Below, in pieces: positions 3,125-11,360 of a stretch of 63,590 nucleotides of DNA. Both the position numbers and the translations under genes were made by a program. Every line of letters starts with the position of its first letter. Position 1 is the stretch's first letter. Origin of the DNA: a virus (Duplodnaviria; Caudoviricetes); IMG/VR virus record IMGVR_UViG_3300014501_000004, positions 1 through 63,590 of that record. One strand, written 5' to 3'. The notes under the pieces are model-generated. The model was given only the letters and a program-made list of their open reading frames with translations, was not told where the DNA came from and did no database searches.

Positions 3125-5071
3125 CTATCTCCGTCCGTACCGCCACGCCTGTTGCATCGCCAGCTGCCGCGCCTGCAACCTCGACTGCTGCTGCCGGCCC
3201 ATGAACTGACTCATCATATTCTGGTGGAATAGCGATGTCTGGTCAACGATTGACTTGTGCTTGCGGACCTTCTCGGCCTCCCGGGTGCGCTTGGCGACGA
3301 TCAAATTGCGGCGGACCCGGGTATCCCAATAATGCGCGCCCAAGGCCATCGCTACCACGCGATCGTCATGCTCGCCAGAGCCTTCGCCGGCAATCGTATC
3401 CCCGTCCCGCGCGATGGTCTGCATCTCTCCGATCAGGTCATGGCTTCGAATATGGAGGTGCCCGCTGCTGACAAAGCCTCGAAGCTCCTCCATGATCATG
3501 ATCTTGGTCGCAAGCTGAGTCTTGAAGTGCCACAGCCCCGCGCCGCCGGACAACAAATCAGGCCGGGTGTAGAGATATTGTTTTACATTGGCGAAGATGT
3601 TTTTAAGCCCTGCCTCTTGCAGCGGCGCGTAGCCGTTCTCGATTTGAAACTTCAGCGAGCGCAACTCCTGAAGCACCGATCCGCCGGGACCGTTTATTTC
3701 CAGGATGTAATGAATCTCGCAAAGCGGCTCGTTGCCGTACCAAGCCATGATGCCGGCGAGGATATGCGCCAGATGACGAGGTACCACCAACGAATAAGCA
3801 TACTCAGCAACCTGATCTATACCGTCAGCATAGCAACGAAGAACCTGAATGGCCGAGCGATCATTGTTCTCGTTCTCCCCGAACGCCGGATCGCACGCCA
3901 CGACGTAAACCGACTCGGGTTGCGGCGGCTCCCACACTTTCAATTCCAGCATTCGCGCGTTCTCGGCGCGATAGACCTTCATGTCACTGAACTCGGGTCC
4001 GCCCATGAACATATACGGCGTGAATTTATTCGAAACGTATTTGTCGGTTTGATCCTTCAGTTTTTCCCCAGCGAAAAACACGCTGCCGGTGATCTGGAAG
4101 GCTTCTTCTTCGTCCCACGGCTGTTCCTGTTTCTGATACGAACTGGCCTCGAACCCGGCATCGACTTCGCCAGCATCGATCGCAGCGGGGTCCATCGCCT
4201 TGCGGTACCATGCAAGCTGCTCCTGCGAGACATCGAAGTTATATAGCTTTTTAACAAGATCGATCTTGGCATGCTCCTCGCTCGACGGCGGCTGCACGCC
4301 GTAGAATTCCCAGTTGCGGTCGGTACGCTCGATGCGATGGCTTTCCTTGGCCCACCAGCCGATGAAAACGCAAACGGCGTTGCGAGTGTTGGAGCGCGCT
4401 TCCTTCCAGATACGCGACCACATATTCATGCCGCGCGCCGTGGACTCTCGGATGTAAAGTCGATTAGGATGGACGTCGGACAACGACTCCTGAAACGATA
4501 TCAAGCCTTCTTCGTTATCAAAACTGCACAACTCTGAAAGATGCGCCAAAGAAACACCCGCGGAACGCCCCAGCGTACCAGATGTTTTTGTTTTCTTAAT
4601 GCCTGCGGACTTAAAAAGAATTTTGGAAGCGTTCGACAGTGTCAGGCCGTCGCGATTGTCTTTAGCAATGCTGGGAAATTTTAAGCTGGCCGGTAGCGCC
4701 TTGATAACAGTCACCAGCTCATCACGAGCCAGGTTCTTGTTCTCATTAGTGTCGAACACCAAAGCGCCGGTTAGCCCGCGATGGACGCCGAGGAAGAAAG
4801 CGCACAGCGCGCGTATAATTGAAGTGATTCCAAGTTGCCTCGATTTAAGACAGTAAAAATCGTGAATGTCCTGCTCAAGCCCGTCGAAGATCGCAGTGAT
4901 AAAAACCTTCTGTCCGTACATCAAATGCTTACCGAGAATGATCGGCTCGCCATAATCTTTCGAATTTATTTCGTACTGATCCAGGTAGGCATAAAACGCT
5001 TCCTCAAACGCAACCCGCTTGGCGCGGCTCCAGCCTCGTGCCTTCTGACCTAATAGCTCACCGTCTGCCAT
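3125..5071 (-). CDS. terL: Terminase large subunit
   Basis: LKSRQLGITS Walker A, AHLSE Walker B, ESTARG coupling motif, VVACDPAFG and HDDRVVA nuclease motifs. Confidence 0.92.
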   Translation of the reverse strand: MADGELLGQKARGWSRAKRVAFEEAFYAYLDQYEINSKDYGEPIILGKHLMYGQKVFITAIFDGLEQDIHDFYCLKSRQLGITSIIRALCAFFLGVHRGLTGALVFDTNENKNLARDELVTVIKALPASLKFPSIAKDNRDGLTLSNASKILFKSAGIKKTKTSGTLGRSAGVSLAHLSELCSFDNEEGLISFQESLSDVHPNRLYIRESTARGMNMWSRIWKEARSNTRNAVCVFIGWWAKESHRIERTDRNWEFYGVQPPSSEEHAKIDLVKKLYNFDVSQEQLAWYRKAMDPAAIDAGEVDAGFEASSYQKQEQPWDEEEAFQITGSVFFAGEKLKDQTDKYVSNKFTPYMFMGGPEFSDMKVYRAENARMLELKVWEPPQPESVYVVACDPAFGENENNDRSAIQVLRCYADGIDQVAEYAYSLVVPRHLAHILAGIMAWYGNEPLCEIHYILEINGPGGSVLQELRSLKFQIENGYAPLQEAGLKNIFANVKQYLYTRPDLLSGGAGLWHFKTQLATKIMIMEELRGFVSSGHLHIRSHDLIGEMQTIARDGDTIAGEGSGEHDDRVVAMALGAHYWDTRVRRNLIVAKRTREAEKVRKHKSIVDQTSLFHQNMMSQFMGRQQQSRLQARQLAMQQAWRYGRR

Positions 5072-5899: not shown

Positions 5900-6070
5900 A
5901 GTTCATCCAGTTCTACGATCTGAAACGGATACCCAGCCTCGATAACTGGTATCTTCTTCGATTGTGATATAGCCTCGTCTCGGTCTTTAAAAACAGCCGG
6001 ATCATCGCTATCGTCATCGCCAATAATGACAACTCTGCCGCTGCTGGGAATTCGGATGACGATAATGCAA

Positions 6071-6292
6071 TCAGACATATCTAAACCCCGCCGCGAACGG
6101 CTTGATCTCATCCAGAAACATTCCGCCGGCAGATAGCGCGGTCGACAGTGCGAGCGCCGTGCCCTCGTCGAACCCGGTGTAGGCGCCGGTCTTGCCTCCC
6201 TTGAGGAATTTCACCAGCACCTCCTGCGTCTCGTCGTCCCAACCGACTTCCTCGATCATGCTTGATAAAACGGGTTTCATCCAGCCGGCCAT
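6071..6292 (-). CDS. KTSC-domain-like protein
   Basis: VLSSMIEEVGWDD...LVKF..G...Y...ALSAGGMF...IK pattern. Confidence 0.65.
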   Translation of the reverse strand: MAGWMKPVLSSMIEEVGWDDETQEVLVKFLKGGKTGAYTGFDEGTALALSTALSAGGMFLDEIKPFAAGFRYV

Positions 6293-6449
6293 CACACAAG
6301 CTCCACGCGTAAACAGCCGCGGAAGAAATCCCGCGTGGAATACGAATTATTTGGTCCGTACATGATATCAACTGGATATTTTTCCAATGCAATGATGTCT
6401 TTCATGCTTATCCGGTTAAGACACACGGCCCTAGATGTTGTGGTCATGT

Positions 6450-6689
6450 TCAAGCCGCGTTCTCAGCCGGTTTGGGTGTCAATTCCCGGATGCGCTTGTC
6501 GATGATCCAAACCAAATCCTCGCCCATGCCGATGCTCGGGCGTGGCAGCAGGCCCAGCACGACAACGAGATTGTCGTAAGCGTCCGCTTTCGGCTTGAGG
6601 CGGTCGATTGTTGCGCGCATGCCGATAATCTCTTGCTTGCAGCGGTTCATCATTTCGATAGCTTCTTGGTTGCTGATCTCGGGCGGCAT
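6450..6689 (-). CDS. Cassette passenger hypothetical protein (coiled-coil)
   Basis: GGAG RBS before ATG at 6689. Confidence 0.7.
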   Translation of the reverse strand: MPPEISNQEAIEMMNRCKQEIIGMRATIDRLKPKADAYDNLVVVLGLLPRPSIGMGEDLVWIIDKRIRELTPKPAENAA

Positions 6690-6700
6690 TGCGGTTCTCC

Positions 6701-7036
6701 CTAGTTGTTCAGTTTCAGGCCAAAAATCTCGCGCATTTCCGGCGGCAGACGCTTCGCAGCGTCCTGACCGGATGGACTGCGCGCCCATTCGTCGCTTTCT
6801 TCTTTCGTGGCGTCGAACTCGCCGTTCGCTACGCGGGCGGCAAACTTGGCGAAGCCTGCGGCGGTCAGTTCCGAATAGAGTTGGGTGATCGGGCAGACAT
6901 AGGTGTCGGCATAGTCATCGAACTCGCCCGTCTCCGCGCGCTTCGCGAAAGCCTCATACTTCGCCGCATTGTCCGGCGAAGCTATCGCGGCAACCTTTCG
7001 AAGCTCGGCGGCCAACTTATCGCGCGTCCTCAACAT
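6701..7036 (-). CDS. Cassette passenger hypothetical protein
   Basis: 111 aa with internal repeat AKRAETGEFD/AARVANGEFD. Confidence 0.7.
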   Translation of the reverse strand: MLRTRDKLAAELRKVAAIASPDNAAKYEAFAKRAETGEFDDYADTYVCPITQLYSELTAAGFAKFAARVANGEFDATKEESDEWARSPSGQDAAKRLPPEMREIFGLKLNN

Positions 7037-7172
7037 CTAGTATGTCTCAGCGTTTGTGTGTTGGAACCGGATAAGCATGATGTCTTTCGCTTGAGTCACG
7101 CTGTTGGCTTCGACGATGCCATAATCTTCTTGGTCGGCATGCCCTTCCATCCCCGTTGCGAGATAGTAATAG

Positions 7173-8600
7173 CTAACCTTGAACTGCATCGACCTTCTCC
7201 CTCAACGCTTCGACGATTCGCTCGAACACCGGCTCCCATCGCATGTCGTCGGACTGTTGGAAAAACCTTGACTTTGGGGTCCAAAGACGTTGTCCATCGG
7301 CGCCGCTAACTCCTGCACGATAATCCCTTCCGAGGTAGCTATAACCAACCCAACATTCTCGATTTGATATTGAACATATGTGCCCGAGAGCTGATTCAAC
7401 TGTAATGACAAGGTCGAGGTTTTGAAGGATTGAGGTAGTGTCCGCAACATCTCGAATGTATCCCGATAAGTCCCTGATGACCGGCGCGCAACCCCACAAA
7501 TTCAGATCGGACTTTTTAGCATCGACCTGCAATGAGTACAATTGAATTCCCGGCACACGCAACAATTCCAGGAAATGATGAATCGGTATATTGCGGTGCT
7601 TGTCGATGTCGTTCATCGGCGAGCCCGACCACGCGATACCGATATGACACTTTCGATCCGGCACGCGCCAGTGGCTCGACATCGAGAATTTCGGCATGTC
7701 GATGTTGGGGGCGTTCCTGATCTCGTCGTCCGTCAGTCCCAGAGCGTAGGGCAGCGAGACGAAGGTAGACCAGCAGTCGGCATCTGGAGGAAAGTTCGAA
7801 GGCGAAGGCAGGAAGTGGAGATTGTCCATGTGCCGGAATGCGTGCTCAAACACGCGACGCAGTTCACTCTGCACGCACATCGAAATGTGTCGACAACGAC
7901 GTGCAGCCTGCTCGACAAAACGGGAATACGAGAGCGTGTCACCAAGACCCTGATCGGCCACCAGGAACAGCGTCTTGTCATTTTCTCCTCGCCACTTGGG
8001 ATACGGGTACATCGTGAAGTTCGGCAGCCGTGCCGCAAACCTCGACTCGAAATGCTTCAGCCCTAAAGCGTACTGTCCGTCGAACAACAGCGCGAACGCC
8101 AGCTGGAATTCGGCCGTGACGTCGCCGGGCGGACCGAGATCGACACACTTGCGGGCGCACTCGACGGCCGTCTTGGTCTGTCCGAGGATCGTGTGCACGA
8201 GGCCGAGGATCATCCATGGCAGCGACAGCTTTGGATTAAGCTCGATGGCGCGGTGACAGTGCTCGATGGTCTCGACCTGCCGGCCTACCTTGTGCAGCTC
8301 CCACGCGAGATTGGTTAAGAGCTTCGGAAGCTCGTCAGCATCCACTTCGGCTTCCAGCGCACGCCGGAAGATGGCGGCAGCCGCGTGCGGGCGCTGAAGA
8401 TCGGAGGTGGCGCAGCCGGCGGCGTAAAAGGCGTGGCCGTAAGACGGGTCCGCAAAACACGCGGAGGTGATGAGCTGGTATCCGTGGTCAAGATTGGTTG
8501 CCTGTGTTCGATCTTGCGCAGCCTGCTCGCCTTTGACCAACAGGTTGATCGCCTGCTGGCGCCGGGCGTCGTTGATCGGAAGTGGAACCGCTTTATTCAC
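7173..8600 (-). CDS. TPR-repeat glycosyltransferase (GT-B, GT9-like C-terminus)
   Basis: N-terminal TPRs; DQGLGD, IGIAWSG, YSLQ, LDLVITVESALGH motifs; native start is GTG at 8600 inside the IS target duplication. Confidence 0.85.
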   Translation of the reverse strand: MNKAVPLPINDARRQQAINLLVKGEQAAQDRTQATNLDHGYQLITSACFADPSYGHAFYAAGCATSDLQRPHAAAAIFRRALEAEVDADELPKLLTNLAWELHKVGRQVETIEHCHRAIELNPKLSLPWMILGLVHTILGQTKTAVECARKCVDLGPPGDVTAEFQLAFALLFDGQYALGLKHFESRFAARLPNFTMYPYPKWRGENDKTLFLVADQGLGDTLSYSRFVEQAARRCRHISMCVQSELRRVFEHAFRHMDNLHFLPSPSNFPPDADCWSTFVSLPYALGLTDDEIRNAPNIDMPKFSMSSHWRVPDRKCHIGIAWSGSPMNDIDKHRNIPIHHFLELLRVPGIQLYSLQVDAKKSDLNLWGCAPVIRDLSGYIRDVADTTSILQNLDLVITVESALGHICSISNRECWVGYSYLGRDYRAGVSGADGQRLWTPKSRFFQQSDDMRWEPVFERIVEALREKVDAVQG

Positions 8601-8615
8601 TTCATGCTTATCCGG

Positions 8616-8644
8616 TTGACACATACAAACCCCCGTGCTAGTGT
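8616..8644 (+). promoter_or_regulatory. Inward promoter overlapping the left TIR
   Basis: TTGACA, 17-nt spacer, TAGTGT. Confidence 0.65.
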
Positions 8645-8683
8645 TTCGTCATTGGACAAGCCCGCCCGGTAATGGAGAGACAG

Positions 8684-8869
8684 ATGACCAAGATCGCTTC
8701 CAACGAACAGGCCAAGCGGACGGTACAGGCCCTCGCAGAGACGACTGGCCTTATCGCCAAGGAGGAATCCTATCGCCTTGACCTTCAGCACGCTGGTTAC
8801 CTCGCCACGCTGAAGCAACACGCTGCGAAGCTTTTGCAGATGATTAGCAACTACAAGGCGGGGGTCTGA
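8684..8869 (+). CDS. IS passenger hypothetical protein 1
   Basis: GGAG RBS; inside the TIRs. Confidence 0.65.
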   Translation: MTKIASNEQAKRTVQALAETTGLIAKEESYRLDLQHAGYLATLKQHAAKLLQMISNYKAGV

Positions 8870-8872
8870 GCC

Positions 8873-9094
8873 ATGGCACACCTTAAAAATTGGTGCCCCG
8901 AAATGTCGCCCGCAGAATATGCGTGGTTCGACAAGTGCCCAAAGGCCGTATTGTTTGAAATTGCTCGCCAATTCGCTATGCGGCTCGGCGACAACTTCAC
9001 GGCCGAGTCTGCTTTTGCCGTTATGCAGACCGAATGGGAAGTGTTGCACGTTCAAGGGATTGTGCCGCAAAAAGCGCCACACGCGAGGGGTTGA
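8873..9094 (+). CDS. IS passenger hypothetical protein 2
   Basis: GGGG RBS; TGA-GCC-ATG junction. Confidence 0.65.
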   Translation: MAHLKNWCPEMSPAEYAWFDKCPKAVLFEIARQFAMRLGDNFTAESAFAVMQTEWEVLHVQGIVPQKAPHARG

Positions 9095-9097
9095 GCC

Positions 9098-9406
9098 ATG
9101 CCACGTGACTTCATCAGGGATATAAAGCTGGCGCTTTTCTTGGATAAGATGAGCGCCACTCTCGCCAACGATCTTGAATGGGCTCTCGCAATCATTGGTG
9201 AGAGTGGCCAACCACAAAGCATAAAAAATGCGAACCGCTACGTTTACGCATGGCAGCATCTTAGAATGAGGCGTGAATATGAGGCGGCCTGTTCCGGTGT
9301 TGGCGCGGGTGAGTTCCGTGGCGATGATCGTGATGAAAATGGCAATCTTACAACGCTCAAGGAACATCGTAAGGGTCCTTTGCCAAGTCGGCCGCGAGGG
9401 GATTGA
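9098..9406 (+). CDS. IS passenger hypothetical protein 3
   Basis: GAGGGG RBS; TGA-GCC-ATG junction. Confidence 0.6.
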   Translation: MPRDFIRDIKLALFLDKMSATLANDLEWALAIIGESGQPQSIKNANRYVYAWQHLRMRREYEAACSGVGAGEFRGDDRDENGNLTTLKEHRKGPLPSRPRGD

Positions 9407-9409
9407 CGA

Positions 9410-10459
9410 ATGCCTCCCCACGCCGACGTACTCCAATGGGAACATTTGCCGTTTCCCAAGTCTCTCAGGGACTTCCAGCGGCTGTTCAAAGACGACGCCG
9501 CTTGCGCCCGATACTTGGAGGGCGCGAAGTGGCCCAAGGGTTTTGTCTGCCCACATTGCGAGGAAAAGGGCGAGCCGTTCCGCATGGCGACCCGGACCAG
9601 CGTGTTGACCTGCCGCGCCTGCCGCAAGCAAACGTCGCTGACGGTCGATACCGTGATGCAGCGCACGCATACGCCGCTGACGGTCTGGTTTTGGGCGGCC
9701 TATCTGGTTTCCAGCATGACGCCCGGCATGTCCGCCGTGCAGTTCCAGCGCCAGCTTGGCCTGACCCGATACGAAACCGCGTTCCAAATTCTGCACAAGC
9801 TGCGGGCTGGCATGGTCCGCCAAGGCCGGGATCGGATCGGCGGCAACCTTGGGCGCGGCGATCACGTCGAAGTCGATGAAACCTACATCGGCGGCGTGGT
9901 ACGCGGCGAAGGTCAAGGCCCCAAGCCAGATGATTCCGTTCTGGTTTCCGCCGCCGTCGAAGTCCGCACTAGACCGGCCAAGAAGGGCGACAAGCCTACC
10001 CGACGCGGCGGGCGCTACGCTGGCCGCCTGCGGCTGGAAATCGTCCCCAACCGCTCGGCTAAGGCGCTGGTAGGCTTTGTGGAAAACGCGGTCGAACCCG
10101 GCGCGATGGTCATCACGGACGCGGCCCCGGCCTACAACAAACTCGGCATGTCGGGCTACGCCCATCTGCCCGTGGTCGAGGCCGGGAACCCGGAAGTTGC
10201 CGAGGAATTTCTGCCCATCGTTCACCTCGTTTTCTCGAACCTCAAGGCGTGGCTGCAAGGGACGCATCACGGGCGCGTCGAGCCGCAACACCTGCAAGCC
10301 TACCTCAATGAGTTCACGTTCCGCTTTAACCGGCGCTTCTACCCGTTCAACGCCTTCCGTTCGCTGCTCGGCATCGGGACCAACGGCGAAGGCCCGACCT
10401 ATGCCGGGATTTATGAGGGAACTTGGAAGCATCCGACGATGGAAACCCATCATGATTAA
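9410..10459 (+). CDS. IS1595-family transposase (ISSod11-like)
   Basis: WPKGFVCPHC..CRAC Zn ribbon, VEVDETYIGG, VITD, VHLVFSNLK, HLQAYLNEFTFRFNRR. Confidence 0.93.
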   Translation: MPPHADVLQWEHLPFPKSLRDFQRLFKDDAACARYLEGAKWPKGFVCPHCEEKGEPFRMATRTSVLTCRACRKQTSLTVDTVMQRTHTPLTVWFWAAYLVSSMTPGMSAVQFQRQLGLTRYETAFQILHKLRAGMVRQGRDRIGGNLGRGDHVEVDETYIGGVVRGEGQGPKPDDSVLVSAAVEVRTRPAKKGDKPTRRGGRYAGRLRLEIVPNRSAKALVGFVENAVEPGAMVITDAAPAYNKLGMSGYAHLPVVEAGNPEVAEEFLPIVHLVFSNLKAWLQGTHHGRVEPQHLQAYLNEFTFRFNRRFYPFNAFRSLLGIGTNGEGPTYAGIYEGTWKHPTMETHHD

Positions 10460-10686
10460 TCAACCTTTGGGGGCTGTATGTTCAAACCGGATAAGCATGA
10501 TTCACTTAAATGTCCCTGCCATTTATTTCGGAAATGAGTGGCGAGACAAATGCCATGACTGATCGCGGTGCCGCGGAAGATGTCGTGAACCCATTCCGAC
10601 GTGTCCTCGCGCTGTCGCACCTTGATGCCGATCTTGCAATGCGGGCAAACATCGTAAACGGTTTTGTCGAATTCTTCTCGGGTCAC
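10456..10686 (-). CDS. Hypothetical protein whose C-terminus is extended by the IS insertion
   Basis: Pre-insertion allele would end ...QGHLSE* overlapping the TPR gene GTG. Confidence 0.7.
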   Translation of the reverse strand: MTREEFDKTVYDVCPHCKIGIKVRQREDTSEWVHDIFRGTAISHGICLATHFRNKWQGHLSESCLSGLNIQPPKVD

Positions 10687-11360
10687 GTCGTCATCCTCCT
10701 GACCGCTTCCGGCGAGTAAGGCGTCCCGGCGCGAGAGACAAAGCCCTCCGCCGCCAGTTGTCGGCCGATCGCCCTTAAGGAAGCAGTCCGTGCCAGCACG
10801 CGCATGCGCGCCGCCGCCTGAACTTCCTGCTCATTAATCTCAAGCGTAGCCGACCGGCCCTCTCCAACCTTACGGAACCCGAACGGGATCTCGCCGACCG
10901 CGCCGCCGCGATCCTTCTTGGCCTTGCGGCCGGCCGCGGTGCGCTCCAGGATGCGCTGGCGCTCCATGTCGGCCACGGCGGCAAGGATGGTCAGGGTCAT
11001 CTTGCCGACGGCGGAGGACAGCGGCTCGGCGGAGATGTCATAGAGAATCAGGTCGACGCCCGCGGCCTTGAACTCCTCGAACATGGTGACGGCATCGCCG
11101 GCCGAACGGAACATGCGGTCGAGCTTGGACGAAATCACGACATCGCCGGGCTTCATGGCGCGAAGGAGATCGGCACCGGCCGGACGGAACGACAGCTTGG
11201 TCGCCCCGGACACGCCTGCATCGGTATAAATCTGGACGTCGAACTTGTCGGCACCGCGGACCCGGGCAATGCCTTCGATGACGTCGGTCTGGACCTGCAG
11301 GCTGGACCGGTCGTCCTTGGCCTGATCGAGCGAACTTACCCTGCAATATCCGAGTATCAT
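10683..11360 (-). CDS. Serine recombinase (resolvase family)
   Basis: GYCRVSS, DAGVSG, KLDRMFRS, ERQRILERTAAG, G..PFGF. Confidence 0.92.
   Translation of the reverse strand: MILGYCRVSSLDQAKDDRSSLQVQTDVIEGIARVRGADKFDVQIYTDAGVSGATKLSFRPAGADLLRAMKPGDVVISSKLDRMFRSAGDAVTMFEEFKAAGVDLILYDISAEPLSSAVGKMTLTILAAVADMERQRILERTAAGRKAKKDRGGAVGEIPFGFRKVGEGRSATLEINEQEVQAAARMRVLARTASLRAIGRQLAAEGFVSRAGTPYSPEAVRRMTT

Follow-up and report, generated by a model that had tools for sequence, protein, structure and literature searches.

Predicted cargo-carrying IS1595-family element and candidate mobile insertion cassette with the same ends in an uncultured phage genome

The IS1595 family of insertion sequences (ISs) is defined by a transposase with a DDE domain, an N-terminal zinc finger or zinc ribbon in all groups except IS1016, terminal inverted repeats (TIRs) and 8-bp duplications of the target (as described in PMC8101967), and some IS families have cargo-carrying members, designated 'tIS' (as described in PMC7986276). 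We analyzed a complete virus record of IMG/VR (IMGVR_UViG_3300014501_000004; 63,590 bp, with direct terminal repeats), the genome of an uncultured phage that is referred to below, at its full length, as the window. It carries two elements with the same ends, element B, a predicted autonomous cargo-carrying IS, and cassette A, which has passenger genes and no transposase gene. By comparing both with viral and bacterial contigs we arrived at the reading that they represent a cargo-carrying IS and mobile insertion cassettes (MICs) that would be mobilized in trans and form a large phage-borne pool. We assign this reading, whose support comes from comparative genomics, a probability of roughly 80%.

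In 2009, Siguier, Gagnevin and Chandler reportedly placed passenger-carrying elements in the ISNwi1, ISPna2 and ISNha5 subgroups of IS1595, and the TIR tip found here presumably resembles that of the ISSod11 subgroup. The elements described below share with the family a DDE_Tnp_IS1595 domain, an N-terminal zinc ribbon, a single transposase gene, TIRs and 8-bp duplications. They differ in that the close clade (at least 59% transposase identity) resides in phage or prophage DNA, always with variable small phage genes, and is accompanied by many transposase-less coding cassettes. MIC231, an IS231-derived element of the Bacillus cereus group, has IS-type inverted repeats around passenger genes without a transposase, and its mobilization in trans has been proposed. 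It differs from the elements studied here in IS family, host and niche (bacterial chromosomes and plasmids versus phage genomes); unlike MIC231, the latter comprise tens of distinct cassettes with standardized end modules. The mycobacteriophage mobile elements MPME1 and MPME2 are very small, with short inverted repeats and one small open reading frame (ORF), and are scattered in phage genomes. We know of no relationship between them and our elements, from which they differ in ends and host range, nor of an IS1595 transposase partner for them.

ISs are described as rare in phages, where insertions are purged (PMC3429520, PMC11602168). MITEs (miniature inverted-repeat transposable elements) of viral genomes were treated by Nadal-Molero et al. 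(2024; PMC11602168) as non-coding and were reported in 0.01% of viral sequences; the words IS1595, passenger and cargo do not occur in the main text of that paper, and its supplementary tables might list some of the elements. The cassettes described here are, like viral MITEs, non-autonomous TIR elements of phage and IMG/VR sequences, but they are coding. In the literature, supplementary files aside, we found no account of IS1595 cassettes as a system in phages.

The 15-mer CATGCTTATCCGGTT occurs at exactly four sites of the window, 6403-6417 (+), 7065-7079 (-), 8603-8617 (+) and 10485-10499 (-), that is, as two inverted pairs, 6403/7079 around cassette A and 8603/10499 around element B; no further site was detected in the window with up to three mismatches allowed. 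The inverted repeats are longer than this core, reaching 25 nt at 88% identity in cassette A and 32 nt at 84% in element B. Between the two elements, the terminal 15 nt are identical and similarity continues at 88-89% over 26-27 nt, and the TIR consensus in relatives spans ~27-30 nt. Each element has its own exact 8-bp duplication, ATGTCTTT for cassette A and ATTCACTT for element B (Table 1), and the chance of such a perfect match beside a given repeat pair is ~1 in 65,536. The common ends and separate perfect duplications claimed in the preliminary description were confirmed. With one transposase gene in the genome and a separate duplication for each element, the arrangement is not that of a composite transposon. 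A chimeric contig of IS and phage sequence might be suspected in a metagenome assembly with elements that are repeated in the community, but both elements have perfect duplications and their excision in silico restores the flanking reading frames. In addition, contigs from the Logan assembly of run X1, a permafrost metagenome that contains 99% of the stretch, cross all four element junctions; X1 is probably the source sample of the window, so these contigs are not independent support. Altogether, we consider the probability of an assembly artefact to be negligible.

Evidence for movement comes from copies of cassette A in other phages. A 676-bp copy at loci L111/L263 is 94% identical at the nucleotide level and has unrelated flanks and another duplication, TAACATGA, in a carrier whose terminase is 66% identical to that of the window phage; a 672-bp copy with the duplication TGATCAAA was found at L266. 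The 5' module of cassette A stands in front of the gene at four further loci (L264, L265, L269 and L270), and at two of them (L264 and L265) the cassette adjoins the end of another cassette, 8 bp apart. The window terminase itself is detectable in only 4 of the 47 cassette-bearing records, which range from 5.6 to 221 kb. An orthologous pair of filled and empty junctions, a check suggested in the preliminary description, was also found. A resident copy of the first cassette A gene (ORF1) at L267 has an 816-bp cassette at its stop codon, and removal of this cassette together with one copy of ACAACTAG yields the ORF1-ORF2 junction of L263, L266, L272 and L279. Finally, we compared the stretch with three lake-water runs from three studies other than that of X1. 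The interior of cassette A is present in all three at 99-100% identity, while the backbone of the window phage has zero depth in bins 5900-6070, 7268-7438, 8294-8464, 8807-9319 and 10517-10687. About 1000 contigs per lake run map to the stretch and pile up on the end modules, including that of cassette A at 6403-6447, and many joints link positions 6442-6449 to 7028-7055 with other sequence between the modules. There were many independent insertions, and the same cassette occupies different sites in different phages, in agreement with the earlier suggestion that such cassettes are shuttled between phages.

The exact 15-mer was found in viral contigs in at least 120 rows of the scan, and relatives of the element B transposase at 36 viral loci, mostly with 66-97% identity. 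We surveyed a set of 156 viral loci and the window, accepting up to two TIR mismatches. Among the 124 nearest plus/minus TIR pairs, 93 are flanked by a perfect 8-bp duplication; by sequence they represent 83 distinct elements of 235-2563 bp, including the two in the window. These were classified into two groups, (i) 28 elements with a transposase, all of at least 1535 bp, and (ii) 55 elements without one. The absence of other TIR-bounded cassettes, which was named beforehand as an outcome that would speak against the system, was therefore not observed. In the first group, 27 of the 28 elements are 1535-2563 bp long with non-homologous cargo; the cargo differs from element to element and consists of one to three small ORFs, mostly upstream of the transposase gene and in the same orientation. 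In the second group, 54 of the 55 elements have sizes of 235-1191 bp (the remaining one is 1516 bp), and most contain a single ORF framed by the standard end modules. A handful of relatives, 235-259 bp in size, may be classed as MITEs.

The short cassettes are trimmed closely around their genes. In 37 of the 52 short ORF-bearing cassettes, no more than 63 nt separate the start of the longest ORF from one tip and no more than 68 nt its end from the other, with medians of nt 44.5 for the ORF start and 0.82 for the coding fraction. The 'type 1' subgroup, to which cassette A belongs, has a 43-nt 5' module that ends in CTAG followed by ATGTTG, and a 3' module of ~41 nt. Target sites that become duplicated are rich in A and T and follow a roughly palindromic pattern (R-W-W-N-N-W-W-Y), with a T two bases before the duplication in 46 of 81 cases and an A two bases after it in 51 of 81. 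Of 70 insertions, 25 are no more than 12 nt away from the boundary of a called ORF, as compared with 8% of random positions. The cargo is co-oriented with concordant flanking genes at 33 loci and opposed at 11, with 25 loci of mixed flanks set aside. Both the boundary enrichment and the co-orientation could reflect the survival of harmless insertions instead of targeting. We also considered translational restart via the outward ATG that the palindromic CATG tip provides at both ends, which in cassette A is in frame with the interrupted host ORF; this candidate was rejected (in frame in 16 of 44 insertions located inside called ORFs, 14.7 expected, p 0.75).

Element B has the features that define IS1595 members. 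Its transposase matches PF12762 (DDE_Tnp_IS1595, E 6.9e-32, residues 151-307) and PF12760 (Zn_ribbon_IS1595, E 2.1e-12), and together with the TIRs and the exact 8-bp duplication these matches bear out the family assignment made in the preliminary description. In an alignment of 10 transposases, down to 42% identity, C47, C50, C68, C71, D156, D237, N277 and E301 are invariant; a catalytic variant with H in place of E was ruled out by the same alignment. The three passenger ORFs at 8672-9406 are located upstream of the transposase gene in the same orientation, which makes element B a tIS. Judged from its sequence, it is an autonomous cargo-carrying IS of the IS1595 family that would be capable of transposition, as its intact transposase ORF and the many independent insertions of close relatives indirectly suggest. 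The left ends of transposase-bearing elements share a promoter-like TTGACA-N17-TAGnnn motif, as read from a comparison of the ends, and conservation in relatives points to a putative inward promoter in the left end of element B. As regards the passenger genes, ORF2 has 28 homologous clusters at 61-79% identity, and ORF3 a single weak and partial relative. Relatives of ORF2 and ORF3 were absent from viral contigs in a search sensitive to close relatives only, and the Atlas gave nothing usable for ORF3.

Cassette A has no transposase match in a tblastn search with the element B protein. At 677 bp and ~85% coding it is not a small non-coding MITE, and it combines ends that match an IS with real passenger genes. 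A non-autonomous MIC with ~27-nt TIRs like those of element B is, in our view, the best reading of this structure. Both of its genes are under purifying selection, as judged from codon changes relative to a second copy (29 synonymous and 3 non-synonymous in ORF1 versus L111; 10 synonymous and 2 non-synonymous in ORF2 versus L111/L263). ORF1 has homologs in 1270 clusters at 90% identity and 417 at 50%, and its named matches are hypothetical proteins of Bradyrhizobium, Ferrovibrio and Parvibaculaceae. An AlphaFold2 model of ORF1 built on few aligned sequences scored low (pLDDT 63.7); one built on a deep alignment has pLDDT 95 and pTM 0.84, with seven helices. A structure search of the deep model in PDB and BFVD yielded no match at E≤0.001, the best hits being uncharacterized viral proteins with E 0.015-0.04. 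ORF1 thus represents a large phage protein family with a confidently predicted fold that has no known fold relative. Structure prediction of the cargo, recommended in the preliminary description, led to no structural relative of known function for this best-modeled ORF.

Genes found in cassettes also occur in phages outside them. Relatives of ORF1 are present at 75 viral loci, with a TIR module in front of the gene at only 6 of these and ORF2 adjoining ORF1 at 18; at ~66 other phage loci the genes of cassette A are ordinary genes without TIRs. Similarity between the cassette and TIR-less forms extends from the start codon to the stop/ATGA overlap shared with the following gene, and the start region reads ATGAGGACG in the resident form and ...ATGTTGAGGACG in the cassette form. 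Likewise, a C5 methyltransferase carried as cargo has relatives at 59 loci, 2 of them in such cassettes, where the gene is fused to ATGTTGA within ~4 codons of its native start. These comparisons are best explained by cassettes that take their cargo from genes common in phages.

To characterize the cargo, we scanned 40 proteins against Pfam: the longest ORFs (at least 125 aa) of 30 short cassettes, 9 ORFs (at least 124 aa) of transposase-bearing elements and the cargo of L267. Matches at E≤0.001 were obtained for 13 proteins, leaving 27 without a match. Seven are DNA methyltransferases (three C5, three N6/N4 and one D12 of the Dam type), and Mom, NADAR, a TnpB-like nuclease and DUF1281_C were matched once each. 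The tally also lists two sub-threshold matches, phosphoadenosine phosphosulfate (PAPS) reductase and PRAI, and one further protein matches the PAPS-reductase PHROG at 7e-31. The TnpB-like protein (367 aa, OrfB_IS605 and a Cas12f1-like TNB domain) is the sole cargo of a 1156-bp cassette at L058:1253-2408, which has the same ends and the perfect duplication ATATCAGA; an RNA-guided-nuclease-type gene is therefore carried by a cassette of the IS1595 type. The preliminary description had raised the possibility of anti-defense cargo. The methyltransferases, Mom and NADAR in related cassettes make this role reasonable for part of the cassette family; for the cargo of the window itself it is hypothetical.

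We searched 48 cassette loci from 47 records with the transposase; five more cassette loci, whose records were already known to encode one, were not included. A close full-length transposase is present in 5 of the 47 records and any match in 9, and of the 23 records with a completeness of 90% or more, 6 contain a match of any kind. Bacterial and archaeal genomes, searched with one genome per species, contain relatives of at least 59% identity in 10 contigs, all from metagenome-assembled genomes (MAGs) of Alphaproteobacteria. Each of these 10 elements (1411-2845 bp) has TIRs and an 8-bp duplication, and one, on a contig of 810 kb, is next to a gene for a head-tail adaptor; five of the MAGs were found to contain 0 to ~3 copies. 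The longest element seen, 2845 bp at L184:2247-5091, has a transposase frame interrupted by 3 stops, and that at L183:4001-4891 is interrupted by 1; both appear to be copies in decay within MAGs. Among phages in GenBank, the best transposase match has 26% identity and occurs in 2 of 50,697 records. The element pool probably lives in phages of Alphaproteobacteria from freshwater and soil.

The next relatives of the transposase, 39-46% identical, belong to compact, cargo-less ISs of 1047-1052 bp that are multi-copy in chromosomes and have nearly the same TIR (up to two mismatches) and 8-bp duplications such as AGNNNNCT. They were found at L186-L253 in contigs of Bryobacterales, Terriglobia and other MAGs, with many copies per genome. 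Such ISs might suggest that the elements are ordinary chromosomal ISs that landed in phage DNA by accident, without any phage-adapted system. We find this quite unlikely, given the low identity of the chromosomal ISs and the fact that all relatives of at least 59% identity are confined to the 36 viral loci and the 10 alphaproteobacterial contigs. In the MAGs, moreover, copies are few and at least one is next to a phage head-tail gene, and the close clade always carries cargo, which consists of phage genes.

Based on these comparisons, the following mechanism can be proposed. The zinc-ribbon/DDE transposase would bind the shared ends and insert the DNA framed by them at AT-rich, roughly palindromic 8-bp targets, duplicating the 8 bp, so that any DNA framed by both ends could be moved in trans. 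Autonomous elements are arranged as TIR, promoter-like leader, one to three variable small genes, transposase and TIR. In the non-autonomous ones, mostly one gene (two in cassette A) is joined to the 5' module at its start, or no more than a few codons away from it, and is followed by the standard 3' module. The presence of cassette A and element B in one genome, and of the cassette at three or more sites with different duplications, fits movement in trans indirectly. Trans-mobilization of the cassettes by this transposase, the modes of cargo expression and capture, and an anti-defense role of the window cargo are all points that we infer.

The alternative that cassettes move, or swap their cargo, mainly by recombination, either homologous between the 43-45-nt end modules or by a site-specific recombinase, draws on the joining of unrelated cargo to a conserved 5' module at one shared position (ATGTTGA...), on an arrangement at L368 that goes beyond simple insertion (see below) and on a serine recombinase gene at 10683-11360. 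The latter is probably a backbone gene, as it also occurs in TIR-less relatives. The 83 distinct elements have perfect 8-bp duplications at unrelated AT-rich sites, a hallmark of DDE transposition rather than recombination. An exchange of cargo may well be due to recombination, but insertion is not accounted for in this way, and as the main route of movement recombination is very unlikely.

It can be speculated further that transposase and cassettes form a phage-specialized gene-cassette system, a transposon counterpart of the integron, in which genes of the common phage pool are captured almost from start to stop between the standard 5' and 3' modules and moved by the IS1595-type transposase of a co-resident phage or prophage, as a fast-exchanging reservoir of counter-defense and accessory genes that otherwise unrelated phages share. 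The ORF-precise capture would then imply an acquisition mechanism so far undescribed. We put this forward tentatively, as possible but on balance doubtful. As in integron cassettes, the cargo consists mostly of single promoter-poor genes trimmed near the ORF, with standard ends, that pass between replicons and at times stand in tandem; in contrast to integron cassettes, these ends form inverted repeats, and many different sites bear the 8-bp duplications. Neither an IntI tyrosine recombinase nor an attC site was detected around the elements; the nearby recombinase is of the serine type, and attC sites were not searched for with a dedicated model. The likeness is best taken as a functional analogy only.

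Several points weigh against the proposed mobile cassette pool. Most near-complete cassette-bearing genomes (17 of the 23) lack any transposase match, which fits trans supply and old immobile insertions equally well. A precise empty allele of the window insertions was not found among the 15 of 33 contig joints examined, contigs being prone to drop rare variants, and the relatives of the window phage are only ~70-80% identical and therefore show gene order, not an exact empty site. A consensus promoter scan of 6300-10650 returned no sigma-70-like site and did not call the candidate in the left end of element B. None of the five cargo ORFs of the window has a Pfam or PHROG match, and PDB sequence searches and the Atlas yielded nothing usable for this cargo; the share of DNA-modification genes in the scanned cargo, which was chosen by length (at least 124 aa), is not an unbiased estimate. 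The statistics on insertion sites, orientation and gene boundaries rely on naive ORF calls, and the IMG/VR contigs are predicted viruses, some of which may be misclassified.

The missing transposases and the missing empty allele are what one would also expect if the cassettes were dead relics, that is, internal-deletion derivatives that have kept their ends by descent and are inherited, immobile, with the phage. Against this stand the occurrence of cassette A, at ~94% identity, in at least three places, each with a perfect duplication of its own and with unrelated surroundings, in carriers of which the most similar has a terminase only 66% identical, and the presence of its interior at 99-100% identity in metagenomes without the window-phage backbone. 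The cargo, too, consists of intact genes under purifying selection that derive from TIR-less phage genes, with no transposase remnant. We therefore regard immobile relics as unlikely.

A single IS1595 lineage with its coding cassettes is common in uncultured phages of 30-221 kb that have no detectable common terminase. If the cassettes are moved in trans, accessory genes, among them DNA methyltransferases, Mom and NADAR, could spread from one phage to an unrelated one independently of homologous recombination. The 15-nt motif with the 8-bp duplication also provides a handle to find candidate phage accessory and counter-defense genes in metagenomes; most genes found via the ends have no assigned function, including the large ORF1 family.

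Table 1. Features of cassette A and element B in the window (TSD, target-site duplication; SD, Shine-Dalgarno)
Feature	Position	Strand	Description
Cassette A	6403-7079		677 bp; same terminal 15 nt as element B; two minus-strand ORFs
Left TSD copy of A	6395..6402		ATGTCTTT
A end module, cargo 3' side	6403..6447	+	TIR 6403-6417 perfect; subterminal part conserved in type 1 cassettes
A cargo ORF2	6453..6692	-	79-80 aa; SD-like GGGAGAA upstream; no assigned function
A cargo ORF1	6704..7036	-	111 aa, all-alpha; no assigned function
A 5' end module	7037..7079	-	TIR 7065-7079 and 28-nt leader ending at cargo start codon (ATGTTG)
Right TSD copy of A	7080..7087		ATGTCTTT
Element B	8603-10499		1897 bp; intact IS1595-family element: transposase and three upstream passenger ORFs
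Left TSD copy of B	8595..8602		ATTCACTT; on the minus strand, GTG start of TPR gene and part of upstream gene's stop
B left end	8603..8644	+	TIR perfect 8603-8617, extended to ~8633
Promoter-like motif in B left end	8616-8621, 8639-8644		Inward; TTGACA 8616-8621, 17-nt spacer, TAGTGT 8639-8644
B passenger ORF1	8672..8869	+	65 aa; start probably second ATG at 8684, after GGAGAG
B passenger ORF2	8873..9094	+	73 aa; conserved hypothetical
B passenger ORF3	9098..9406	+	102 aa; near-orphan
Transposase	9410..10459	+	349 aa; zinc ribbon (CxxC...CxxC) at the N-terminus, DDE domain; no stops
B right TIR	10469..10499	-	Perfect 10485-10499
Right TSD copy of B	10500..10507		ATTCACTT

The window phage has a terminase-like gene at 3125-5071, and its terminase is at best 35% identical to those of cultured relatives among GenBank phages. 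Both elements are located within a run of minus-strand phage genes. In-silico excision indicates that cassette A splits a 70-aa ORF and that element B lies precisely where the stop and start of two conserved genes overlap (GTGAATAA), a small gene (10456-10686) and a gene containing tetratricopeptide repeats (TPR; 7173-8624), which abut directly in the related phages L164, L165 and L169. None of the 11 loci related to the window phage has a TIR at this position. The serine recombinase (minus strand, 225 aa, PF00239 resolvase domain) is encoded two genes from the right end of element B and is probably a backbone gene, given its occurrence in TIR-less relatives.

The region between the TPR-containing gene and a KTSC-like gene, into which cassette A is inserted (window 6292-7189, minus strand; L165:2440-2652; L166:6392-6577), encodes non-homologous ORFs of 61-70 aa in related phages and, on this comparison, is a hypervariable small-gene slot. 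Run X1 also contains a contig of lower depth (5.5 versus ~36) that has 31 other letters in place of 6263-7192, the 70-aa ORF slot with cassette A, which indicates a co-occurring strain without the small-gene slot.

Compound arrangements of cassettes were seen at several loci. At L264:1400-1475 two type 1 cassettes follow one another head to tail, their ends separated by only 8 bp, and form a small tandem array, and nested or compound forms are also present at L036, L064, L096 and L135. At L368:1158-2690, two cassettes (1158-1883 and 2332-2690) are 448 bp apart, and the 8-mer GAAGGATT flanks the intervening segment and neither cassette. A simple insertion would give the opposite pattern, and a rearrangement mediated by cassettes is suggested. 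Finally, a long tandem array with a ~15-nt unit rich in CAGCCAGCTC is located upstream of the cassette region at L264:1-195.

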